Positions 50,716 to 63,769 of a stretch of DNA of 64,000 nt are shown piece by piece. This DNA comes from Alkalispirochaeta sp. (lineage in GTDB: Bacteria > Spirochaetota > Spirochaetia > DSM-27196 > Alkalispirochaetaceae). The DNA is taken from NCBI GenBank assembly GCA_965242725.1, contig CBDESZ010000022.1:1-64000 (forward strand). The letters run 5' to 3'. The position numbers were made by a program, and so were the translations under genes. Below the pieces are notes generated by a model. That model made no database searches and was not told the DNA's origin. It worked only from the letters and a program-made list of their open reading frames with translations. Numbering within the stretch: position 1 is the first letter of the stretch; each line of letters starts with the position of its first letter.

Positions 50716-50836
50716 GACGCGCTCCTACGATATTGACGCTATGGATTTATCCCCTCTTTGTCAACGCGACGGCGGCGGGAGCGGAACGTCATGGCCAGCG
50801 CATTAAATCAGAGGAGCCGGCGGCAGGTGCGGAACG

Positions 50837-50865
50837 TTGACACGCCACAACGGCCGACGGATAAT
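50837..50865 (+). promoter_or_regulatory. Sigma70 promoter, leaderless geometry
   Basis: TTGACA-17 nt-GATAAT, then 6 nt to ATG 50872; no Shine-Dalgarno. Confidence 0.7.
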
Positions 50866-50871
50866 GGCGCA

Positions 50872-52228
50872 ATGCCGTTTCCCGTCATAATTGGCATCCT
50901 TATTCTGGTTATTTCTCTTTTGACTGCCGTCTACTGGTTCACACTGGGGAACAAAGATACTCCCAAGAAGAAAAAACAGAACGCTCCACAACGGCAGGAT
51001 CGTAACGCCGTATTGCGGGAGGCCAATCGTCAACTGGCGTCAAATCCCCGTGACCACCGGGCCCTCAACCAGATTGCGGACCTCTACTACGACGAACAGT
51101 CGTGGGAGAAGTCTATGAAAACCTACGGTATTCTCATGAATCTCGCCGCGTCAAATCAGGAGATCGACGAATGTCTGGTCACCACCCGCTACGGACTCTC
51201 GGCGCTCCAGCTCAACCAGTATGATGAGGCGTACAAGGCGCTCATGGTCGCCCGGACGATCAATGAAGAGCCCTTTGACATCAATTACAACCTGGGATAC
51301 CTGGAATATCGGCGGAAAAATTACGAACGGGCGGCACAACTCCTTCGCGCCGCCCTGGAAGCGCAGCCGGAACACGTTGCCGTACGACGGTACCTCGGGC
51401 GGACCATGTACAAGCTCCAGAAATTCAAGGACGCCCTCCGATATCTGCGGCAGGTCGTAGACCTCGCGCCGGAAGACAAGGAGTCTCTCTTTTTTTCTCG
51501 CCCAGAGTTACCATGAGCTGGGACAGAACGAGCAGGCCCTCATGATTTTCAGCCACCTCAGGCCCGACCCGACCATGGGACCCCACGCATCGTTGTTTGC
51601 GGGTATTATCCGCATGTCAAAACGGGAACTCGAAAAGGCGACGATGGATTTTGAACTCGGCCTGCGCCACGAAAAAGTGCGGGAAGATGTTGCCCTGGAG
51701 CTTCGCTACCGCCTGGCCGATGCCTACACGCGACAACAGGACATCGGAAAGGCGCTCCATCAGCTCGTTGAAATTCACCGGGTCAATCCGGGGTACAAGG
51801 ACGTAGCCGCCCAGATCGCCCGCAACAAGGAACTCCACAGCAATCGCCACCTGCAGATCTATCTCATCTCGCCAACCAGCGAATTTCTCTCTCTCTGCCG
51901 CAGGATGGTCATGACGTTCTACAATAACGCGAAAGTGAAGATCGTGGACGTGCAGATTCAACAAAATGAATACGCCGACATCCTGACGGAGGTCGAAACT
52001 GCACGATGGGAAGATGTGATTCTCTTTCGATTTATCCGCGGTACCGGCCAGGTGGGAGAACTGGTTGTTCGCGAACTTAACTCCCGGCTCAAAGAGACGA
52101 GGGCGGGACGCGGATTTTGCATCACCGCCGGTTCATATTCCGAGACGGCGACGCATTTTGTGGAGGCACGGCTGATAGACCTCCTGGACAAGGACAAACT
52201 CCTGGAAATATTCAACCGCCTCGACTGA
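50872..52228 (+). CDS. Membrane-anchored TPR protein with C-terminal Mrr-like domain, frameshift at T-run near 51490
   Basis: N-terminal TM, TPR repeats (YNLGYLEY, YLGRTMY, YRLADAY), C-terminal VGELVVREL..RGFCITAGSYSETA..F...RLIDLLD. Confidence 0.8.
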
Positions 52229-52234
52229 GTATCG

Positions 52235-53315
52235 TTACCGTTCCACGGTGTATCGGACTATCTGTGCCGTCTCCTGGTTGGTCGCGACGATATGGTCTCC
52301 GCCGGGATGGTGGACCACCGTCACCTGGGCTGTTCCCGTCCCCTCGGCGATGGTCACAACCGCGGGCTCCTGTTCTCCCGTCCATTGAAGAAGTTCCAGA
52401 TTCTTGTGTCCGCTGCGGTTTCCTACAATGACCGAGGGCACGCCGTTGACCGGACCGGCCCAGAGCCCGTGGCCGAAGGCTATGGGACGGGTCTCCCGGC
52501 GAGCGGCAGGAGCGTCGTCAACGGTGTCATAGACAACCAACTCATCGCCGTGAAAGGGTTCGATCGTCACCATTTCATCACGGCCATCCTGATCAATATC
52601 GAGAAACGCCATTTCCGAGACTTCGCCGTTGAAAATTTTGTGAAAGCGCCACCGTTCTTCCGGCAATTCCGGGATCGCGGCGCGATACATCCCCCTCCTC
52701 GCCGGAAATATAGATCCATCGCCCCCGGGCGAGAAGTCCGTGGTTCTTATGCAGTTCCGGCAGCACCGGCCGGAGCGGTATCGGCGCATCGGCGGGTAGA
52801 TAGTCGAGGCCCCCGCCGTCCCGTCGGCCCGTCGTCGCGGAGTTGCCGAGGGCGTGGGCGAGGCGGTTCCCGGGAATTTCCGCTGCGAAGAGGGCTCCCG
52901 GTCGACACCAGTCATCCCTGTCGCTCTTTGTCAGGGCGATCGTTGCCGCAAGGACGACGACACCCGTTCCGTTTGCATAGCTGTGTAACCGATGCAGAAA
53001 GGGAAGATCAAACAACCGTACCGGAGACCCCGCTTCGGTGACTCCCGCGACGTAGACGGCGGATCGGTGAAAGTCGTATCCCACATTGGAGCCGCCGATC
53101 ATGAAGACGGCGTCCCGACCTGGCACCGGTACGATGTCGAGACACCCTCCGGGACCTTCCGATACGGTTGTCACGTCCCATTGCTTCGGGTCTATACGCA
53201 CCACCGCACCGGCCCCTTCGCTGGCGACGATGACGGCGGTGCCGAATGAAAAATCGACCTTCCGTGCAACATATGGATTCGGCATTGAGGCGAGAACCGC
53301 GGCGGTGATCTTCAC
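52235..53315 (-). CDS. FG-GAP/VCBS-like beta-propeller hypothetical protein, frameshifted
   Basis: GTG overlapping upstream stop; LPFLHR, KNHG, DIDQDGRDEMVTIEPFHGD, FGHGLWAG spread over alternating frames. Confidence 0.6.
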
Positions 53316-54208
53316 GACTCCTCCGTCCGCCCGATATTGATGCCGAGAAGATCTTCCCACAGTTGCACGATCACCGGCTGTGACCTGGGGCCGTCGCCGC
53401 GGGCGATTGCCGCGGTAAAGACCTCATCAACGATTGCGGTCACGGGAACGGGAATATGGGATGACCTGGCGAGGTTGCGTGCGTATCCGAGATCCTTGCT
53501 CAAAAGGTCGACGGTTCCTCCCGGGCTGTAGTCCCCCTTTGTGACTGCATCGATCGTGACGTCCAGCACCGGCGACCCCGCCCATCCACCGCGTATGGCG
53601 GCGTGCAGATCTCCTGGATCGATACCCGCTTTGGCGCTGAGGGCGAGACCCTCTGCGATCGAGGTGAACGCGGCGCCCACGATCATATTGTTGACCAGCT
53701 TTGCGACGCCACCGCTTCCGGTGTCGCCGACACGAACAACGGACCGGCCCATCATCTCCATGAGAGGACGGAACCGTTCAATCAGCTCCTCCGGCCCGCC
53801 GCACATGATGGAAAGCGAGCCCGACTCCGCGCCGAGCTGTCCGCCCGAGACGGGAGCGTCAATATATCCGATGCCGCGTTTTGCCGCGCTAGTTGCGAGG
53901 AGGCGTGTCGCTTCCGGTTCCGTCGTCGAGACGTCGATAATGACGTCGCCCGGTGAAAGGTGTTCCGTCAATCCGCCGGGACCATCCACCACATCTCGTA
54001 CCGCTCCCGTCGAGGGGAGGGAAAGGAATACCACTTCCGCCGCCGCGGCAACCTCGGGAACGCCGGCGACGACGGTCATTCCCGTCGAACCCGCAACGGC
54101 GTGCAAACGTTCCGTATCCCGGTCGTAGGCAAAGACGCTGTGCTTCCCCTGCAACCGGGTTGCCATCGGAGCACCCATCACTCCGAGACCGATCCATCCG
54201 ATATTCAT
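53312..54208 (-). CDS. Beta-hydroxyacid dehydrogenase (3-hydroxyisobutyrate dehydrogenase/GarR family)
   Basis: IGLGVMGAPMA, DVST, DAPVSGG, KLVNN, KDL. Confidence 0.93.
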   Translation of the reverse strand: MNIGWIGLGVMGAPMATRLQGKHSVFAYDRDTERLHAVAGSTGMTVVAGVPEVAAAAEVVFLSLPSTGAVRDVVDGPGGLTEHLSPGDVIIDVSTTEPEATRLLATSAAKRGIGYIDAPVSGGQLGAESGSLSIMCGGPEELIERFRPLMEMMGRSVVRVGDTGSGGVAKLVNNMIVGAAFTSIAEGLALSAKAGIDPGDLHAAIRGGWAGSPVLDVTIDAVTKGDYSPGGTVDLLSKDLGYARNLARSSHIPVPVTAIVDEVFTAAIARGDGPRSQPVIVQLWEDLLGINIGRTEES

Positions 54209-54217
54209 GAAGGCCGG

Positions 54218-54706
54218 TTACCAGTCAAGCTGTACAGTAAATCCGGCAAATACCTGGACGGGCTGACTGGAAAACTGCGGTTTGGGATAAAAATCGAAAC
54301 CGGGGGCAACTTCGACAAAAAACTCAAGGAAGTCGTCCAGGAGGAGAACGCTCAGCGCAAAGGGAACGCGGGCACCGCCGTCAAACTGGACATCTCCGTC
54401 GCCGTCGCGCCCCTCCGGATAGAGCTTGCCGTAAAGTCCGATACCGAAAGAGCCGTGGAGCACTTCCACCAACTGGCGATTGTCGATAAGGCGCAGATCG
54501 CCGGCGAGAAACACGTACTGCTTCCCCTCGGTCAGGTCGTATCCGATCTTCACATCCATCGGCGACGGCCGATATACGAGCACACCATTGGGCGTCCCCG
54601 CCGCCAGTCCGAGACGACCCGGCCTGTTGCCGACCTGTGCGAAAAGCGGCGTTGCAACGGCAACTGCCAACAATAGGGTGACCAATATGAACTGTCGTTT
54701 CATCAT
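54218..54706 (-). CDS. Small outer-membrane beta-barrel protein (DUF3996-like)
   Basis: Signal peptide, alternating-residue strands (GARVPFALS, LEFFVEVAPG), C-terminal Trp; GGAGG before ATG. Confidence 0.7.
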   Translation of the reverse strand: MMKRQFILVTLLLAVAVATPLFAQVGNRPGRLGLAAGTPNGVLVYRPSPMDVKIGYDLTEGKQYVFLAGDLRLIDNRQLVEVLHGSFGIGLYGKLYPEGRDGDGDVQFDGGARVPFALSVLLLDDFLEFFVEVAPGFDFYPKPQFSSQPVQVFAGFTVQLDW

Positions 54707-54734
54707 ATCCTCCGTGGCCAGTATACGATATTTC

Positions 54735-54763
54735 TTGTCCGCTGGCCCATTGCCTGATATAGT
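54735..54763 (+). promoter_or_regulatory. Sigma70 promoter of the PilZ-fusion operon
   Basis: TTGTCC-17 nt-TATAGT with TGn extension, 12 nt before ATG 54776. Confidence 0.6.
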
Positions 54764-54775
54764 CATTTCTCAATT

Positions 54776-57700
54776 ATGGCCGAAAAACGTCAACACCCGC
54801 GTGTGGTGCATCGGGACGTGGTCAGGTTTGAGGGAAACGGTGCGACCATTGAGGGGTTGTCCGTTGATATCAGTCGGGCGGGGATTCAGGTTGAAGTCGC
54901 CGATCCCCATTCCCTGAACAGTGTTGAAACGATCCGGTTTTCACTTCCCAATACGAAGTCGGAACTGGAGCTCCCCGTACGTATTACCCGCCGGGAAAGC
55001 GCTGCGGACGGGAACGGTCAGCATAGACTCGGCTGTGAATTCCTCCGCAAATCAGATCAGCATATTCGTCTCATCGAAAACTACATCCGCGACACCGTCG
55101 CCCTTCCCGATCAGGATGGTCGCCAGATTCCCCGCATTACCACGTCGATTCCGGTGGAGTGGGATGACGGTCGCTCCCGGGGGACGATTGAAAACATCTC
55201 ACTCACGGGGGTGCGCATTTCCACGGAACGTGCCGTGGAGGTCCACAGGGATCTGCATCTCACATTCACACTGCCCGAACGAGGGGGTGCGACAAAGGCA
55301 TCGGCCCGCGTCGTCTATACCATACGGGAGGAATCGAGCCGGAACGTGCGGTTCGGCGCAACCTTTGTGGACCTTCCCCAGGTGCATCGTGCGCGCATCA
55401 ATAATTTCATTGAACAGACGACTGCGGTGACCTCACTCAAGTCGGTATGGGCGCGCCTCAACACCGACGGCGGGCGGGGATACACCCTGGAGGGGCATGA
55501 ACTCGCCGTCATCCTGCAGCGGGTGCCCGGGATCGTCTTCCATATCCTCATGGAGGGTGACCTCTCCATACATACGGCCACGGCGTCATATGACGGCGGG
55601 GAGCGGGAAATGCGGTTTACCCTGGTTCCCCAATCGGGTAGTTCCCCGTCCCAACCGGGGCAACGCCTCTTCGTCACCTTTACCGCCCTGGGGAGCAACT
55701 ACTATTTCGCCGCTCCCATAACCGGGATTTCCCGCCCCGACGCGACCGCCGCCGGCTCCGGGACCGTCGAAAATCGTGACGGAGTGTCGCAGGTCGTCAC
55801 CCGATGGCCGCAACACATCCATCGTTCCGACGACCGTGCCGATCACCGCTCGCCGGTGGAGAGCGACCAGCGGCTTTCGTTACGGCCCGAAGGAGGTATG
55901 GCACTTCTTGAGGGTCTCCTCATTGATGTGAGCCACGGGGGGTTTCTCTGCTCCCTGACCGTATCCGCCTCTGAAACGGGGCAGCTGCAGCCCGATACCG
56001 CGGTTGCAATTGAAACGGACGGCCCGGTGCCGCTCCAAAGCTACGGACGAATACGGCATCGGGAAATCAGGGACGACACCGGGGAAGGTGCCGATACCCG
56101 TGTGGTCTACGTCGGCGTGGAAACGGGGGTACGCCACGGTACCTTCGTACGTAGAGAGATATCCACCGATGAATGGGAACGACGCCTTGAACGATTAAGG
56201 AACGAGGACGACGGGGAAACGCCGGACGTTGAATCGCGCCACATTGAGACGCGGCGCATTTCCTATCGCAACAACGAAGGACACCGTATCGTCGCCCTCA
56301 TGAACCGCGTCGGAGACGACCGGTCGGGACGTCCGACGGTCGTCATCATTCCCCCCGCCTTCGGAAAGAAGAAGGAAAACCCGGCGCCGCTGGCGCTGAC
56401 CTTGTGTACAACCTTTCTCCGTGCAGGTGCGCCGCTCGTCGTTATTCGGTACGACGGTATCAACCGTCCCGGTGAGAGCCACAACGAAGGGGGTGGAGCA
56501 CTGCGGGGATACGAGATGATCCACTACCGGCCGACCCAGGGAGTACGGGACATATCGACTACGCTGGATTTCGTATACGGCAACGGCGAGTTTATTCCAC
56601 AACGGGTCATTCTCATCACCAGCAGTATGTCCTCGGTGGACGCACGAAAACTCCTCGTCCGGGAAGGTCGCGTAGACGGCTGGATCAGCCTCATGGGAGT
56701 CCCCGCCGGCAGAACCACCATGATGAACGTCCTCGCCGGAACGGACATCATTGCAAATTACCGCCTCAGCGTCCCCAACGGGGTACGGGGCATGCTGGGT
56801 CACCTGGTCGACATGGATGTGGTTGCCCGGGATCTCGTGGAGGAGCATTACGCCTTCGTTGCCGATGCGCGTCACGATATGGCTCTCATTGACATTCCCG
56901 TCACGTGGATCGTCGGCCGGCATGACCACTGGGTGGACAGGGAAGAAGTTGAAGACATCATGTCCGTCGAAGCCGGCGCCCCCCGGGAGGTGGTCCACAT
57001 ACCCACCGGCCACAACCTCAGAAACAGTGACGACGCAGCCGAGGCATTCCGCATCATCGCCCAGTACTGCGCCGATGCGGCGGGGCTGTCGGTGGAAGCG
57101 GCGGCACCTCCCCGGGAGGCGGTCCTCCAGACACTTTCCCGGGAACGTGAGGGACTCTACAAACCGATTGACACCGACACCGTCACCGCCTACTGGCACT
57201 CCTACCTTCTCGGCGGCGACGGAACGAGTGAAGGCTACGATTTCTACCGGAATCTGGCGGAGTTCCGCGAGTTCATCGCTCAGGAAGCGGAGATGCTGGA
57301 CCCGCAACCTGGTGATCACATTGCGGATATGGGGTGTGGAACGGGTATTCTCACAGAGGCCCTCCTGCGCAGGCTCGTCGACGACGGGCCACGTAACGAT
57401 GACAGACCTCCCTCCGGAATCGTCGCGGTGGATATCATTCCGGACGCCCTCGTCCGGGCGGAGAAGAAATGCCGGCTCATCCTCGGAGAAAACGCACCGG
57501 CGCCTGACATATCACTTGAATTCCGGACGGCAAATCTCGAGCCGGACCGATATGCCCCGGTGCGGGACTTTGTATTGAACCGACAGTTGTCGCCGGCCTT
57601 TCTCAGGGGCCGCATCGAGGGGCTGTACGACAGCGTGGTGGATCTCTGGGACAGGGAAGACTCTGCGGGCGACATTCTCCGCGGAGACGATATCGCCCTG

Positions 57701-58270
57701 CCCGACGATTTTCCCCGTGCCGATGAGGCACGGGAGTTCCGCACCGCCGCCCGCGTTGCCACAGGCCACATGGACGCAGCGGACGCATGCTATTCGATTT
57801 TCTCCTTCGGAGACGCGCCGCGGCAGAGGGCACAACGAGAGGAGCCGCGACGGTACGACCGTCTCGCGGCGAGCCTCTTCATTTCCTATATTCTGAACCC
57901 CGATTACCTCCTCTGGGAGTTTCATCGCATGCTGCGCCCGGGCGGGGTGATCCTCGTCTCTTCCATGCGTCCCGACAGCGACGTTTCAAAGATCTTTACC
58001 ACCTACATTGAAGAGGTGGACTCGGGACGGGCCGATGCGACGCACCGCGGAGCGGCCGACGCGATGCTCAATGAGGCGGCGGCACTCTTTGAACTGGAAG
58101 AGGAGGGCCATTTCCGCTTTTACACCGCCGAAGAATTGTCGGCCATGTTGATCGCCGCCGGTTTCACGGATGTCCGGGTGCGACCTTCCCTTGGAACGCC
58201 CCCGCAGGCGTACATCGCGACGGGTATCGCCGTCGAAAATCCCCCCGAGCCATGGAGGAACTATGCATGA
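54776..58270 (+). CDS. Multidomain protein: three PilZ domains, LuxD-like alpha/beta-hydrolase, class I SAM methyltransferase
   Basis: RQHPR..DISRAG, RQIPR..NISLTG, RADHR..DVSHGG; RYDGINRPGES, TSSMS, DHWVDREEV, GHNL; ADMGCGTG and RMLRPGG. Confidence 0.85.
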   Translation: MAEKRQHPRVVHRDVVRFEGNGATIEGLSVDISRAGIQVEVADPHSLNSVETIRFSLPNTKSELELPVRITRRESAADGNGQHRLGCEFLRKSDQHIRLIENYIRDTVALPDQDGRQIPRITTSIPVEWDDGRSRGTIENISLTGVRISTERAVEVHRDLHLTFTLPERGGATKASARVVYTIREESSRNVRFGATFVDLPQVHRARINNFIEQTTAVTSLKSVWARLNTDGGRGYTLEGHELAVILQRVPGIVFHILMEGDLSIHTATASYDGGEREMRFTLVPQSGSSPSQPGQRLFVTFTALGSNYYFAAPITGISRPDATAAGSGTVENRDGVSQVVTRWPQHIHRSDDRADHRSPVESDQRLSLRPEGGMALLEGLLIDVSHGGFLCSLTVSASETGQLQPDTAVAIETDGPVPLQSYGRIRHREIRDDTGEGADTRVVYVGVETGVRHGTFVRREISTDEWERRLERLRNEDDGETPDVESRHIETRRISYRNNEGHRIVALMNRVGDDRSGRPTVVIIPPAFGKKKENPAPLALTLCTTFLRAGAPLVVIRYDGINRPGESHNEGGGALRGYEMIHYRPTQGVRDISTTLDFVYGNGEFIPQRVILITSSMSSVDARKLLVREGRVDGWISLMGVPAGRTTMMNVLAGTDIIANYRLSVPNGVRGMLGHLVDMDVVARDLVEEHYAFVADARHDMALIDIPVTWIVGRHDHWVDREEVEDIMSVEAGAPREVVHIPTGHNLRNSDDAAEAFRIIAQYCADAAGLSVEAAAPPREAVLQTLSREREGLYKPIDTDTVTAYWHSYLLGGDGTSEGYDFYRNLAEFREFIAQEAEMLDPQPGDHIADMGCGTGILTEALLRRLVDDGPRNDDRPPSGIVAVDIIPDALVRAEKKCRLILGENAPAPDISLEFRTANLEPDRYAPVRDFVLNRQLSPAFLRGRIEGLYDSVVDLWDREDSAGDILRGDDIALPDDFPRADEAREFRTAARVATGHMDAADACYSIFSFGDAPRQRAQREEPRRYDRLAASLFISYILNPDYLLWEFHRMLRPGGVILVSSMRPDSDVSKIFTTYIEEVDSGRADATHRGAADAMLNEAAALFELEEEGHFRFYTAEELSAMLIAAGFTDVRVRPSLGTPPQAYIATGIAVENPPEPWRNYA

Positions 58271-59690
58271 CCTCATAGCGACGATAGACGGTGCGCTTGC
58301 GACGTGGGGGCCTCACCCCGTCCTCATTGAAGTCGACGGGAACGGGACCATCACTCCGATCCCCTCATCGGAGCTCCTCCGACGGATCGACGGGGCGGAA
58401 CACTCCCTCCGGCGGTTCGGAGTTCAACGGTACGACGTGGTCGCCCTCTTTCTGGAGAATTCAGCGGATTACATCGCCGTCCTCATCGCCCTGTGGCGGC
58501 TGGGAGCGATACCGGTCTTTGCGAAACTGGAGTACCGCCGCAATGAACTGACCACCATTTTTCGCGACATCGATCCCGACGGGATAATCACGGAAGAGCA
58601 CTATCTGCCCCACCTGAAACAGTTCTATCCCGGACGGGGAATCATCGTTCGCAGACCCGACGGACTCGCTGCGGCGCAGCCCGTTACCCGGCACCACGTT
58701 TCGGAGGAGACGGTATCGGGAATAGCATCGATCAACTGCACCTATCGCGGCTGCGGCGAACTCCTGGGAAGCATGGCGACGGAGCGGCAGTATCTCCACG
58801 GGGCGAAGGTCCTGCAGGACGGTCTGCAGGGGAACGCCGGTGAATCGATGCTCTACCCCCTTCCACTGAGCCACATTTTCACCTTGATCGGCTGCCTTCT
58901 GGTACCCCTCATGTACGGAATGACAGGTGTAATCACCCGAACCGTCCATCCCAGAGTTCTCTTTGACACGATACATAAACTGGAGATCCGCCATATGACG
59001 GCGGTACCGGAGATCTATCGTCTCCTTGCACGCTCCTTTCGGTCGAAGCGGCCGCCGGAATCGCTGAAGACATTTGTTTCCGGCGGAAGCACCCTGGAAG
59101 CGGGAGAGTGCCGCAATTTCAACGATATCTTTGAGGTCGAAGTCCTCCACGGTTTCGGCCTGACCGAATTTACGCCGGTGAGCCGCAATGTACGGAATGA
59201 GAGCCGGTGCGGGACGGTAGGCCCTGTCTGCGACGGCGTGGAGGTATCCATCGCCAATCCCGACGACGAGGGGAAAGGGGAAATACTCGTCAAAAGCGAC
59301 GCGCTGGGATTGGGGTACTACAATCGCCCTCAGGCGACACGACAAGCCTTCCGGGACGGCTGGTTTCACACCGGTGACCGGGGATTTTTTGACGGGGACC
59401 ACCTCGTGTTCGATCGGGAGATAAAGGCGACAGGTAAAATCAACGGCGTCATGGTGGACCGGGAAGAGATCCGTCGGACGATCCTTGCGGCGACGCCCGC
59501 GCTCGACGCGGAGGTCCGACTGCAGGGAAATTCCATTTTGGCACTTCTGGAATTACCGGAAGACGCCGATATTGAGGGGGAACAAAAAAGACTTCATAAA
59601 GTGTTACCCCACCAGCTGGCGGCGTACAAGATTCCCCGTCGTCTGGAGCAGCGGGTCAGACCGGCCGTGGGCGAAAGAGAGGAACCGTGA
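58263..59690 (+). CDS. AMP-binding (acyl-adenylate-forming) enzyme, atypical
   Basis: LPLSHIF, SGGS, GFGLTE, GEILVK, GWFHTGD, YKIPR; P-loop reads CTYRGCGELLG; GGAGG before ATG 58263. Confidence 0.85.
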   Translation: MHDLIATIDGALATWGPHPVLIEVDGNGTITPIPSSELLRRIDGAEHSLRRFGVQRYDVVALFLENSADYIAVLIALWRLGAIPVFAKLEYRRNELTTIFRDIDPDGIITEEHYLPHLKQFYPGRGIIVRRPDGLAAAQPVTRHHVSEETVSGIASINCTYRGCGELLGSMATERQYLHGAKVLQDGLQGNAGESMLYPLPLSHIFTLIGCLLVPLMYGMTGVITRTVHPRVLFDTIHKLEIRHMTAVPEIYRLLARSFRSKRPPESLKTFVSGGSTLEAGECRNFNDIFEVEVLHGFGLTEFTPVSRNVRNESRCGTVGPVCDGVEVSIANPDDEGKGEILVKSDALGLGYYNRPQATRQAFRDGWFHTGDRGFFDGDHLVFDREIKATGKINGVMVDREEIRRTILAATPALDAEVRLQGNSILALLELPEDADIEGEQKRLHKVLPHQLAAYKIPRRLEQRVRPAVGEREEP

Positions 59691-59971
59691 GCGACAGAGA
59701 ACAACCGACGGAGCTGATGAATTCTGCGGCTCTCCGGGACCGACTGGAAATGATCGTTTCCCGCATATCGAGAATCCCCCGGGAAGAGTTTGAAGATGAG
59801 GTGCTCATCCGGGAGGAACTGGGCATCGACAGCCTCATGGCAATGGAAATCACCGCCGCGGTGGAGCGGGAGTTCAGCGTTGAGATCAATGAGGCGGAAA
59901 TGTTTTCAATCCAGGCGGTAGGCGAGTTTGCGCGGTTTGTAGAAGAGCGGTACCGGGAGACCCATGGATAA
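59687..59971 (+). CDS. Acyl carrier protein
   Basis: ELGIDSLMAMEI phosphopantetheine site, acidic, 94 aa, GTGA overlap with upstream stop. Confidence 0.92.
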   Translation: MSDREQPTELMNSAALRDRLEMIVSRISRIPREEFEDEVLIREELGIDSLMAMEITAAVEREFSVEINEAEMFSIQAVGEFARFVEERYRETHG

Positions 59972-61274
59972 GGGACGAATACTGCTCATTTCACCGGGTG
60001 GCGCGTTTCTGAGCCGGAACGAGGAATTTCGGACCTATGTTGAGACGTCCCGGGAGATGAAAACGATCCTTCACTACTGGAACGGTCTGGGTGCGGCTCT
60101 GCCGACGGTGGCGGCCCTCACACCCGAAAACTATTCGGTCACCATTTGCGACGAAAATTACAGCGACATCGACTTTGACTCGCCCGTCGAAATCGTCGGA
60201 CTGACGGGAATGACCCAGCAGGCTTCCCGGGCGTATGAGATCGCCGACGAATTTCGCAGGCGGGGCGTTTATGTAACGATGGGCGGAATGCACGCCACCG
60301 TCCTCCCCGAGGAGGCGCTTGAACACGTCGATTCCGTCTTTGTCGGGGAGGCGGAAAACACATGGCCCCGGTTTCTGTCCGACTACGACAGGGGAGAGCC
60401 TCGCCGTATATATGACCAGAACGATTATCCCGACGTCGACATGACGACGATTCCGCTGCCCCGGTACGACCTGGTAGCCCACAATGACTACCCCGTGGTG
60501 TGGGTTCAGGCGACACGGGGGTGCCCCCTTGACTGCGAGTTCTGTGCGGCCACACGGGTCTATGGTCGACGTTACCGCCACAAGGAGGTTTCCCAGGTCG
60601 CAACCGAGGTGCGTACGGTGCGATCGCTCTGGAAACACGCCCAGGTCGGATTTGCCGACGACAACATGTTCGTCAATCGACCGTGGGTACGAAAGCTTCT
60701 TGACGAATTTGAGACGATTCCGTTCACCTGGTACGCCCAGAGCGATATTTCAATTTCGGAGCATCCCGACCTCCTGCAACGGCTGCATGAAACGGGTCTG
60801 CGCATTCTCTTTGTCGGTTTTGAGAGCGTAAACCACGACAATCTCAAGGGGATAAACCGCAATGAGTGGAAAGCGCGCCGGCTGGAGCGATATCCTGACG
60901 CGATCGCGGCGATTCAGGGAGCGGGTATCGGCGTCTACGGCTCCTTCATCGTCGGAATGGAATCGGATGACCACGATGTGTTTTCCCAGATTGCGGACTT
61001 CGCAAACACCAATAATCTGATGGGTACGCAGATAACGATCCTCACGCCCTTTCCCGGCAGCCTCCTGCGAACCCGCATGGAGCGGGAGGGACGGATTGCG
61101 TCCAGCGACTGGAGTCTGTATACCGCGTGGAACAGCGTCATACACCATCCCCGCCTATCCGCAGACGAGCTCGAGTCGGGTCTGTTGAAAATCTATCGGT
61201 CGGTCTATGCGGAAGAACAACTACGCGCTCGAGCGGCGCATTTCAAGACCATTTTCCGGAAACTCGCGGGGTAA
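59964..61274 (+). CDS. Cobalamin-binding-domain radical SAM enzyme
   Basis: GGMHAT..PEE, GEAE, RGCPLDCEFC (CxxxCxxC), DDN, VGFES, TPFPGS. Confidence 0.92.
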   Translation: MDKGRILLISPGGAFLSRNEEFRTYVETSREMKTILHYWNGLGAALPTVAALTPENYSVTICDENYSDIDFDSPVEIVGLTGMTQQASRAYEIADEFRRRGVYVTMGGMHATVLPEEALEHVDSVFVGEAENTWPRFLSDYDRGEPRRIYDQNDYPDVDMTTIPLPRYDLVAHNDYPVVWVQATRGCPLDCEFCAATRVYGRRYRHKEVSQVATEVRTVRSLWKHAQVGFADDNMFVNRPWVRKLLDEFETIPFTWYAQSDISISEHPDLLQRLHETGLRILFVGFESVNHDNLKGINRNEWKARRLERYPDAIAAIQGAGIGVYGSFIVGMESDDHDVFSQIADFANTNNLMGTQITILTPFPGSLLRTRMEREGRIASSDWSLYTAWNSVIHHPRLSADELESGLLKIYRSVYAEEQLRARAAHFKTIFRKLAG

Positions 61275-61284
61275 CAACGACGAG

Positions 61285-63769
61285 ATGCAGCCGGGATACA
61301 TAGAGGAACAAAAAGAACGGGCCCTTCGGAACAGCCGTATCGCGGCCGTCTTTGCCGCGGTTGCAATTATGGTGTTCGCCCTTCTCGACATGGTGGTCTA
61401 TCCAGACTTTATGTACCGCTTTCTTATTCTCCGCATTTCAGTCGTCGGCGTCAGCGCGATCCTCTACGCCATTACCTATATTCCCCGTGCCGCCGATTTC
61501 GGACGGGAGATCGGTATGGTTCAGTACGTCATTACGGCTCTTTCAGTTGTCGTGATGATACATATGGCGGACGGGTACCTGAGTACCTATTACGCGGGGT
61601 TGAACATCATTTTCATCGTTTTTCTCGCCATTCTTCCCCTGGACCACATCAGGACAACCGTCATTTGCTCGGTCATCTACGCGGCGTATCTCATTCCCAT
61701 CCTCCTGCACGGCCAAATCGACGATTGGGCGATTTTTGTCAACAACAACGCCTTCCTCCTGGGAACAATCCTGCTCGCCGTCGTAAGCTCCTATTTTTCA
61801 AATCGCCTGCGCCGGAAGGAGTATATCGCCCGATACAACCTCGCCCGGGCAAATGACGAGCTGAAACAGATGGACCTGCTGAAATCCCAGTTTTTCGCCA
61901 ATATCAGCCATGAGGTGCGGACGCCGCTCACGTCGATCATCGGCCCCGTTCAAAGTCTCTACCAGGGGGAGGCCGGGGAGGTAAACGATATACAGCGGCA
62001 GCTCCTTTCCCAGGTCTATCGGAACGGCGTCAGACTCCTCGACATGATCAATCAAATGCTCGATTTTGCCCGGTTTGATGCAAATAAGATGCAGGTGCGT
62101 CTGTCCGAGGTCGATCTGGATACGGTCATTCAGGACATCATCTCCGTCTTTCTTGAAGTCGCTGCACGAAAATCACTGACGATCACCTATGAACTGGAGA
62201 CGGATATTTTTCCGGTCTATCTGGACAAGGAAAAAGCGGACCGGATTATCACCAATCTGCTGAGAAACGCCATAAAATTCACCGACCGCGGCGGAATCAC
62301 CATACGTGCGGGCAGCAACGGCGATACCGTCTATATCGAAATAGAAGACACGGGAATCGGCATACCGGGAGATCAGGTTTCGACGATTTTTGAACGGTTT
62401 CAGCAGGTCGACAGCTCGAGCACGCGAAGGTACGAAGGAACGGGCCTCGGATTGACGATCGTCAAGGAAGCGGTGGAGATCCAGAGGGGCTCGGTGGACG
62501 TCCGGAGCGTATACGGGGAAGGAACGACCTTTACCGTAACCTTCCCCTGCGATCTCCATGAACAGATGCCAAACGCCGTCGGTGCACCTGTTGCCAAGGA
62601 ACGGCGACGGGGGGACCGCCGAAAAGGAAACGGCGCCTATACCGGACCGGAACGGCGACGCGGACCGCGGCGACAGCTGGACTTTGCACGTGTGGACATC
62701 GCCGATATGGTCATGATCGATTCGGGGCTCTACGGGTTCGATGAAGAGGATGAGGAGTCGATCGCCGACCGGGACGATGACCGGGAGCGGACAATCGTTC
62801 TCTACGTCGAGGATAACGTCGACCTTCGCAGGTACGTGTATACAATGCTCTCCCGATCGGGGTATCGCGTCGTTACCGCCGCGGACGGCAGAGACGGGTG
62901 GGACAAATTGCAGGACCTCCACCCGGATGTCGTCGTTTCCGACGTCATGATGCCCCGCCTGGACGGCTACGACCTCATGAAACGGATGAGAAGCAGCGAC
63001 GAGCTGTGCACCATTCCGATCATCCTCACCACGGCCAAGTCGGAAACAGAGGAACGGATCAAGGGTCTGGAACACGGTGCGGATGATTACCTTGCCAAAC
63101 CGATAAACATCAGGGAACTTGACGCCCGTATTCGCAATCTCATAACCCGCAGGCTCTTTCAGGAAGCGGTGGCAAAAGCGGAAATGCTGGAACGGCGAAT
63201 GCAGGACATCACCCTGGGATTCTCCCGTTCCCTGGATCTGCGGGATCCCTACACGGCAAATCACTCAAAGGATGTCCTCTTTTTTGGTACGATTATCGCC
63301 GATGAACTGGGATATACCGTAGACGAGACGTTCCGTGACGCGCTGCTCCTTCACGATATCGGGAAAATCGGAATCCCCGACCGTATCCTTCTCAAGGAAG
63401 GGCCTCTCAATGATGACGAGTGGACGTTAATGAAACGACACGCCGAGTTCGGTGCCCAATTGCTGGCGGAAATTTGAATCATTCAGGGATGTCAGTGAAA
63501 TCGTCCTCGCCCATCAGGAACGGTTCGACGGGAGCGGATATCCCCGGGGCCTGAAAAACGGGGATATCCCCTTTATTGCCCGCATTATCGCCGTTGCCGA
63601 CGCATGGCACGCGATGACTGAAGATCGTCCCTACCGCAGGGCGCTGGATGTCTCCGAAGCCATTTGTGAATTGACCCGTGGCAGGGGCAGCCATTTTGAC
63701 CCTGCGGTGGTTGATGCATTTATTGCGGCTCTCTGCCGTCACCAATTGATCGATCTATCAATGTGCTGA
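61285..63769 (+). CDS. Hybrid sensor: multi-TM histidine kinase, receiver and HD-GYP domain, frameshift near 63472
   Basis: About six TM helices, SHEVRTPL, NAIKFT, DTGIGI, GTGLGL; VEDN, SDVMMP, LTTAK, KP; LLHDIGK, then HQERFDGSGYP and DRPYR in the next frame. Confidence 0.9.

Follow-up and report, generated by a model that had tools for sequence, protein, structure and literature searches.

Which molecule is made, and which is read, by a spirochaete operon that joins cyclic di-GMP (c-di-GMP)-binding domains, fatty-acyl enzymes and a membrane kinase? The question is raised by positions 54776-63769 of a 64,000-nucleotide stretch of Alkalispirochaeta sp. DNA (GCA_965242725.1, contig CBDESZ010000022.1, positions 1 to 64,000; hereafter the window), where five plus-strand genes, here named A to E, are identified from the open reading frame (ORF) list, Pfam and NCBIfam. 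The five linked genes, which occur in free-living spirochaetes, most likely serve to make a fatty-acid-based signal that is then sensed by a relative of the Ralstonia receptor PhcS. The preferred reading, to which a probability of roughly 0.65 is assigned, is a Phc-type methyl ester signalling module with a different synthase, sensing in the membrane and a tie to c-di-GMP at both ends. The observations behind it are gene content, conservation, motifs, folds, homology to the PhcS-type sensor, partner swapping beside the receptor and conflict among gene trees. An earlier note on this DNA had proposed a lipid signal made by A and sensed by E, in a system without a described counterpart. The proposed pair gains from the PhcS-type sensor and its pairing with PhcB-like enzymes, while its chemistry stays at the level of prediction; full novelty is not upheld because the receptor belongs with the Phc sensors.

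The features of the operon are as follows:

Gene A, 54776..58270 (+): putative signal synthase of 1164 aa with PilZ-PilZ-PilZN-PilZ domains, a LuxD-like alpha/beta hydrolase and a class I S-adenosylmethionine (SAM) methyltransferase with a helical insert; Pfam PilZ 102.9 bits, Acyl_transf_2 26.8 bits (cut-off 20.3), Methyltransf_23 38.5 bits
PilZ motif pairs of A, 54788..55945 (+): RxxxR and [D/N]hSxxG at residues 5/31, 116/140 and 354/384, all intact
LuxD-like hydrolase domain of A, 56231..57160 (+): putative triad Ser617, Asp717, His746
Class I methyltransferase of A, 57260..58267 (+): DMGCGTG at residue 851, split by the ~110-aa helical insert
Gene B, 58263..59690 (+): ANL-fold protein of 475 aa, Pfam AMP-binding 155 bits; P-loop and C-terminal catalytic lysine gone, AMP-side motifs retained
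Gene C, 59687..59971 (+): dedicated acyl carrier protein (ACP), Ser49; Pfam PP-binding 49.7 bits
Gene D, 59964..61274 (+): B12-binding radical SAM enzyme (Pfam), a candidate optional tailoring gene
Gene E, 61285..63769 (+): membrane kinase with a six-transmembrane (6TM) sensor, HisKA, HATPase, REC and HD-GYP domains
6TM sensor of E, 61285..61884 (+): MASE8-like, PhcS-type, with a predicted adenylyl-cyclase-anchor fold; invariant Asp35 and Arg50
Cytoplasmic part of E, 61885..63769 (+): HisKA, HATPase, REC and HD-GYP, with HQE replacing HHE

The same-strand arrangement of overlapping or near-abutting genes reported in the earlier note is confirmed together with its domains: A/B overlap by 8 bases, B/C by 4 and C/D by 8, followed by a 10-base gap between D and E.

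The predicted receptor and its relation to PhcS

The 200-residue N-terminus of E folds as six helices in the predicted model (predicted local distance difference test score, pLDDT, 94.3). This model matches ImcA, AC9 and AC5 at Z-scores of 15.9, 15.0 and 14.6 (root mean square deviation, rmsd, ~3; 192-198 residues aligned), with the next match at 9.7; Z-scores below ~13 are common among helical bundles and the margin is modest, yet the top three matches are of one family. The 6TM domain of E is, as modelled, of the adenylyl-cyclase lipid-receptor fold, and a MASE8 match under its cut-off is noted in 20 of 28 sensor family members. Domains of this 6TM type are described as sharing a design with CqsS and LqsS and as binding lipophilic ligands (PMC4821796, in part), and the 6TM domain of Rv1625c is described as responding to fatty acids (PMC12505454, in part).

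A search of plasmids led to a locus of Paraburkholderia graminis (L166) with genes for a methyltransferase of 468 aa, a kinase of 445 aa and two receiver proteins. The sensor profile matches the L166 kinase at 79 bits (E 1.5e-23, model positions 3-193). Residue R22 of PhcB is said to be conserved in Paraburkholderia (PMC6989110, in part); the L166 methyltransferase has its Arg22 preceded by N-S-Q-G-E-L-V, and the wild-type primer of that source, as read by eye, encodes N-S-Q-G-Q-Q-V. Because Arg22 stands in the context given for PhcB R22, L166 is taken as a phcB-phcS-type locus. Two of the sensor homologs are named PhcS by the Joint Genome Institute. Judged by sequence, the 6TM domain of E is homologous to the PhcS-type sensor. 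Asp35 and Arg50 are kept in all 41 sensors examined, the PhcS-type included, and Tyr102 in 40 of 41, the residue being Phe in the PhcS-type.

The output domain is of HD-GYP type. The motif set of this family is given as HD, HHExxDGxGYP and RxY[K/R], and loss of a key His need not abolish activity (10.1101/2021.11.05.467447, in part). The HD-GYP domain of E keeps HD, GYP and RxYR; HHE is replaced by HQE in the window, as in 16 of 24 relatives, and is kept in the other 8.

Three further observations concern the receptor and its neighbors. A Pseudanabaena plasmid (L167:7734-9451) encodes the 6TM domain by itself, with an alpha/beta hydrolase after it. In P. graminis, the phcB-like gene has upstream of it a gene for a cyclopropane fatty acid synthase (L166:4517-5539), an echo of the tailoring genes near the distant synthases described below. 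Leptospira LvrA was considered as a relative of E and set aside: the top NCBIfam match spans the kinase core only, the sensor domain has no LvrA match, and LvrA is described as a soluble PAS kinase (PMC5863495, in part).

Synthases of two kinds beside one receptor

Seven sensor loci are found outside the A-type operon (four strong and three weaker sensor matches), and a PhcB-like methyltransferase adjoins the sensor in all seven (25-33% identity, E ~1e-32 to 1e-40). Of the four strong-match loci, three show the 6TM-kinase-REC-HD-GYP build in full, and in the fourth the contig ends within it. In L168:7408-11791, L169:3087-6911, L170:1-4448 and L171:6694-11171, an operon-type receptor is divergent from a PilZ-like/PhcB-like methyltransferase; the PhcB-like partners in L168-L171 have a weak N-terminal PilZ match (16-20 bits), and no PilZ is matched at the N-terminus of the short PhcB-like proteins. 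One genome (G438) harbors the ligase-type operon in addition to the divergent PhcB-like/receptor pair. The window's own genome (G000:C32:29176-32015; L174:3201-6019) has a PhcB-like methyltransferase followed by the same kind of 6TM sensor, here fused to a SpoIIE phosphatase; this pair recurs in two other genomes (G014 and G038), its sensor match being among the weaker ones.

That A makes a PhcB-like product is argued most strongly by the presence of two unrelated synthases beside one receptor. Protein A is probably a non-orthologous replacement of PhcB that forms a fatty acid methyl ester signal, because the receptor is homologous to the PhcS type, is found beside PhcB-like enzymes and follows the distant synthases.

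Conservation across spirochaetes and distant synthases

Spirochaete loci were selected for synteny by gene A only. Thirty-three were examined, one a duplicate (L075 = L027), and five stop short of the kinase and are consistent as far as they reach. In all 27 loci long enough to include the kinase, which come from two branches of the phylum and have A at 34-56% identity, the order is A-B-C-(D)-E. Gene E is a single ORF of 825-874 aa in all 24 relatives reaching its end, with kinase and REC-HD-GYP fused in one protein (24/24). The operon ends with this fused kinase, and no recurrent regulator gene follows it in the spirochaete operons. Asp-Ser of gene C is invariant in 25/25 and CxxxCxxC of gene D is kept in 20/20. 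Co-occurrence of all five genes, suggested in the earlier note as a check, holds for A, B, C and E (27/27) and fails for D, which is present in 20 of 27 loci; no D orthologue is encoded elsewhere in any of the five genomes searched among the seven that lack it (29-33% paralogues or nothing). Radical modification as a core step of the pathway, as the note had it, is not supported by this count.

Of 99 genomes of the order, 32 have family B and 39 a strong sensor match, with 31 of the family B genomes among the latter. The system is patchily distributed, because gene A is found in only 8 of 401 genomes drawn evenly from the phylum. Homologs carry names such as Alkalispirochaeta and Spirochaetaceae (Spirochaetales). 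A scan of genome contigs returned one locus, a duplicate of G454, and no match to the synthase was found in plasmids.

Beyond the spirochaetes, phmmer finds 561 representatives (E 1e-10 or better), and Atlas clusters that carry the A-type fusion have the labels Verrucomicrobiota, Omnitrophota, Myxococcota and Nitrospirota. Scanning metagenomes with the ~820-aa synthase group gave 199 confirmed loci, of which 80 were kept (69 clusters at 90%). The same sensor lies within 3.5 kb downstream in 45 of 46 distant clusters with room (one is without it, and 23 more have too little DNA). The sensor is thus conserved beside the synthase in spirochaetes (27/27) and distant clusters alike, in keeping with the cognate pairing that the earlier note had put up for checking. 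PilZ motifs are retained in 60 of 65 distant synthases. ACP or family B is found in none of the 69 clusters, and the distant kinases terminate in another kinase module where the spirochaete ones have HD-GYP. Because the distant synthases keep the sensor without ACP, B or HD-GYP, the core of the system is synthase plus sensor, with ACP, B, D and HD-GYP as spirochaete additions. Genes within 6 kb of the distant synthases (blastp) include an MMPL exporter in 32 of 69 clusters, LolA-like (7), desaturase (5), cyclopropane synthase (2), AurF-like (2) and another radical SAM (1), where the seed genes alone were checked by Pfam and a few counts may be shadow ORFs. These optional genes are predicted to act in fatty-acyl tailoring or export. 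In L150:970-9861, a distant synthase lies between two kinases that carry this sensor domain.

Exchange of the radical SAM enzyme with the sensor

Gene trees of the spirochaete loci are in conflict. In genus g168, the four loci fall into a single clade in the trees of A (100/99), B (97), the kinase core (98) and ACP (92), and this clade is rejected for D (p-AU 4.6e-10) and the sensor (p-AU 0.0067). In family f49, L044 and L046 are 79/82/84% identical in ACP/D/sensor versus 56-76% in the flanks, while L046 and L047 are 46/44/30% identical in ACP/D/sensor versus 79% in the hydrolase and 81% in the kinase. A step in identity marks the sensor-kinase junction. In a set of 21 loci, the sensor has partial correlations of 0.71 with D, 0.36 with ACP, 0.13 with the methyltransferase and -0.19 with the hydrolase. 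The radical SAM enzyme and the sensor domain thus appear to be exchanged together between lineages, and such an enzyme-receptor block could give each lineage its own dialect (signal specificity groups). ACP was considered as a general part of the block and rejected: it moves with the block in f49, not in g168, where its clade is retained. Two kinases with a second kinase output (P0403 and P0417; the name of one is Desulfobacula) fall together with the sensor type of L044 (100/99), which suggests that sensor types cross phyla.

The putative synthase, protein A

The PilZ motifs for c-di-GMP binding are defined as RxxxR and [D/N]hSxxG (10.1101/814665, in part), and protein A has three such pairs; all three are intact in 86 of 120 homologs and two in 22 of 120. 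The three PilZ domains of the earlier note are canonical, and a PilZN-type domain that it had not counted precedes the third (profile match to PP4397, 2gjg/3kyf). Ser617, Asp717 and His746 are invariant in 50 of 50 aligned homologs and presumably form the catalytic triad, an assignment that takes the motif order to be that of LuxD. The AlphaFold2 model of A (pLDDT 88.7) finds LuxD (1tht) as its best Foldseek match (E 7.8e-16; next 6.3e-13). LuxD is likewise first for the hydrolase by VIA (Z 28.0, rmsd 2.9, 276 aligned), effectively tied with esterases at 27.4, and is the sole hydrolase match of the distant-synthase profile.

The SAM motif of the methyltransferase is intact. The class of its acceptor was sought by sequence and by fold and settled by neither; the hydrolase filled every fold list. 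The PhcB-like protein of L166 aligns to the synthase profile over the generic SAM core only (23.7 bits, 120 columns), and its only match in the window's genome is a gene on contig C32. The helical insert of the methyltransferase (window 57530-57840) has no Pfam match and is missing from the distant synthases of ~820 aa, which also have neither ACP nor gene B. The insert may be a docking site because it is absent from synthases without ACP and gene B.

Protein B, an ANL fold without adenylation motifs

The P-loop and the C-terminal catalytic lysine are the motifs by which ANL enzymes adenylate, and the P-loop is visible in the alignment with 4-coumarate-CoA ligase. At this position family B reads YTYRGxGYPLG. 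A canonical P-loop is found in 0 of 120 family B homologs and the GK motif after YKIP in 0 of 111, most chains terminating 6-8 residues past YKIP. By contrast, the AMP-side motifs GxGLTE and TGD and the hinge Lys/Gly are invariant in 69/69. ATP-dependent loading of a fatty acid by B, an adenylating enzyme in the earlier note, is doubtful because these adenylation motifs are lost. The pattern is that expected of an enzyme performing only the thioester half-reaction. PtmA2 is a precedent for a non-adenylating ANL enzyme that performs the second half-reaction only (PMC6594144, in part). The likeness is one of described function, and the spirochaete operon differs in having no PtmA1-like partner.

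Proposed mechanism and its alternatives

An acyl chain would be placed on the operon's own ACP with B as a non-adenylating partner, which could transfer an acyl group already activated elsewhere (the thioester-forming half only). Where present, the B12 radical SAM enzyme D would modify the tethered chain, e.g., by methylation. The acid released by the LuxD-like domain of A would then be esterified by the fused methyltransferase, which gives a neutral methyl ester that diffuses as the signal. The 6TM domain of E is proposed to bind this signal within the membrane and set kinase activity, REC phosphorylation and HD-GYP output, and c-di-GMP would feed back on A via the PilZ domains. Exchange of tailoring enzyme and sensor together would yield signal specificity groups.

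Several points weigh against this scheme. All of the chemistry, the ligand and the direction of the feedback are deduced rather than observed. The methyltransferase of A is, by sequence, not of the PhcB family; among its best relatives of solved structure are enzymes that methylate N, O, C and As, and the fold of the hydrolase is matched about equally well by esterases. B is the component whose part in the scheme is least settled. The comparison with PhcS used the Paraburkholderia orthologue rather than the characterized PhcS. Activity of the predicted HD-GYP phosphodiesterase may be low because HQE replaces HHE in the window and most relatives. As to the exchanged block, the kinase core also correlates with D (r 0.42), monophyly of f49 is not rejected (p 0.28 for the sensor), the groups for the AU tests were picked after the trees were seen and related loci are not independent; D and the sensor adjoin on the DNA, and linkage alone can give co-transfer.

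Other explanations were also weighed. The kinase may read a membrane or metabolic lipid of its own cell and report on the acyl pool or B12 status rather than on density. No exporter gene recurs in the spirochaete operons, B could be an acyl-binding pseudo-enzyme, and the 6TM domains of cyclases are described as responding to ordinary C18:1 acids (PMC12505454, in part), all of which would suit such cell-autonomous sensing. It is nonetheless considered unlikely: MMPL lies near the distant synthases in 32 of 69 clusters, the synthase interchanges with PhcB-like enzymes whose characterized relative makes a secreted signal (PMC11298618, in part), and diversified sensor-enzyme pairs would be expected of intercellular signals.

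Two alternatives concern the chemistry of A and are each quite improbable. The enzyme might both make and break the signal, with the methyltransferase esterifying a free acid, the hydrolase destroying the ester as an esterase and c-di-GMP picking the direction. The tie in fold with feruloyl and other esterases would fit, as would the PhcB-like partners of the same receptor, which need no hydrolase. This possibility is countered by the first rank of LuxD in Foldseek, the Acyl_transf_2 match over the Pfam cut-off, LuxD as the only hydrolase match of the distant profile and the dedicated ACP of the operon. Alternatively, the signal might be a lipid other than a methyl ester, formed by acylation of an amine or alcohol by the LuxD-like domain, with N- or C-methylation of the product by the methyltransferase. 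The methyltransferase matches are not specific for carboxyl acceptors, and a non-adenylating B could carry the second substrate; against this stand the receptor held in common with PhcB-like enzymes, its Asp35 and Arg50 kept in 41/41, which suggests a shared head group, and the lack of any recurrent acceptor-supplying gene in the spirochaete operons and distant clusters. A methyl ester signal sensed in the membrane is the reading retained here.

Operon boundaries and sequence quality

Two features of the window bear on the ends of the operon:

Promoter-like consensus match, 54735..54763 (+): chance level
Extra base (artefact), 63470 (+): frameshifts the HD-GYP domain of gene E

The sigma70-like promoter of the earlier note exists as a site; such sites are no more frequent than chance (4 found vs 3.9 +/- 2.0 in shuffles), and the promoter was rejected as evidence for the operon. 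A divergent gene without Pfam match (54218-54727, minus strand) starts ~50 bases from gene A, a spacing with hardly any space for a leader or ribosome-binding site.

A one-base frameshift within HD-GYP splits gene E in the window (ORFs 61207-63477 and 63452-63769), a break that goes unmentioned in the earlier note. The letter at 63470 is omitted by the contigs of both covering runs (X1 and X4), which are one sample and possibly the window's own source. The frameshift is an assembly error, because the covering contigs omit the letter and 24 of 24 relatives that reach the gene end have a single ORF; the same evidence rules out a pseudogene. At 56351, one X4 contig drops a letter at depth 4; this is probably an error of that contig because X1 and X2 agree with the window. 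Same-strand ORF pairs at 52238-53360 (minus) and 50758-52228 (plus) overlap or are closely split and resemble single genes broken by indels, which suggests further assembly errors in the contig. Elsewhere, the window's genome encodes a second ACP besides gene C, 24 ORFs with a GGDEF motif and 7 with an HD-GYP motif.

Significance

If true, the preferred reading would extend methyl ester quorum sensing, described as largely limited to Betaproteobacteria (PMC10653808, in part), to spirochaetes with a new type of synthase, and towards Myxococcota, Nitrospirota, Verrucomicrobiota, Omnitrophota and Desulfobacula (from Atlas cluster labels and one named record). It would also provide (i) a candidate ligand class for orphan MASE8-like sensors, (ii) a natural set of matched enzyme-receptor variants for studies of specificity, (iii) a candidate B12 radical SAM enzyme that acts on an ACP-bound acyl chain, (iv) a conserved ANL family that lost adenylation and (v) four-gene (without radical SAM) and two-gene (distant) forms that are directly testable in E. 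coli. A broader proposal is more tentative and somewhat doubtful as a whole. It holds that signalling by fatty acid methyl esters has a further branch, widespread and undescribed, whose synthase is a thioesterase-methyltransferase gated by c-di-GMP. The signals would differ chemically (radical-methylated, desaturated, cyclopropanated or plain), each being read by a co-exchanged 6TM receptor, so that dialects like those of agr would exist in spirochaetes and in other bacteria of anaerobic or sediment type; the spirochaete loop would be closed via the receptor-fused HD-GYP and fed by a new non-adenylating acyl transferase. No description of this system was found in the literature searched, where coverage of subscription journals and bioRxiv supplements is poor; architecture lists in PilZ and HD-GYP surveys (supplements and image tables), which lie outside this coverage, might list protein A or E.

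Comparison with known systems

Signal systems that resemble the operon in part include those of Xanthomonas, Vibrio, Legionella and Staphylococcus. The rpf/diffusible signal factor (DSF) system of Xanthomonas consists of RpfF, RpfB, RpfC and RpfG. It shares with the operon the logic of a fatty-acyl signal, an ANL-family gene, a membrane kinase and HD-GYP output; it differs in that the spirochaete kinase and HD-GYP are one protein, the ANL protein is without adenylation motifs, and no RpfF-type enoyl-CoA hydratase is matched by Pfam or NCBIfam in any of the five genes. In staphylococcal agr specificity groups, a variable block spans the signal-shaping gene and the receptor sensor domain between conserved flanks; the likeness is confined to such a block, the proteins and chemistry being unrelated. 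The link between RpfC and RpfF and the activity of RpfG are described elsewhere (10.1101/2021.11.05.467447 and PMC6989110, both in part). Vibrio CqsA/CqsS and Legionella LqsA/LqsS similarly place a synthase beside a kinase with a 6TM cyclase anchor and a lipophilic ligand (PMC4821796, in part). The likeness of CqsS/LqsS to E is one of shared cyclase-anchor fold, and no pyridoxal phosphate-dependent synthase of Cqs/Lqs type is found by Pfam among the five genes. The myristoyl-ACP thioesterase LuxD (1tht) resembles the hydrolase of A in fold, Ser-Asp-His triad and Acyl_transf_2 match; by contrast, the hydrolase of A is only 20% identical, scores 20.9 bits in NCBIfam against a cut-off of 420, is part of a fusion and stands in an operon without lux genes.

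The closest system is Ralstonia phcBSRQ, in which the PhcB methyltransferase makes methyl 3-hydroxy fatty acid signals for the PhcS kinase. In both, a methyltransferase gene is linked to a kinase with the homologous 6TM domain, and PhcB-like enzymes replace the A-type synthase beside the same receptor. The spirochaete synthase differs in that it is not of the PhcB family and is fused to a LuxD-like hydrolase and PilZ domains, and the operon adds a dedicated ACP, a non-adenylating ANL protein and a B12 radical SAM enzyme. For output it has the fused REC-HD-GYP, and neither PhcR nor PhcQ is encoded in it for a relay. Thus, the spirochaete module is predicted to work like Phc and to share its sensor family, while differing from it in synthase and relay.

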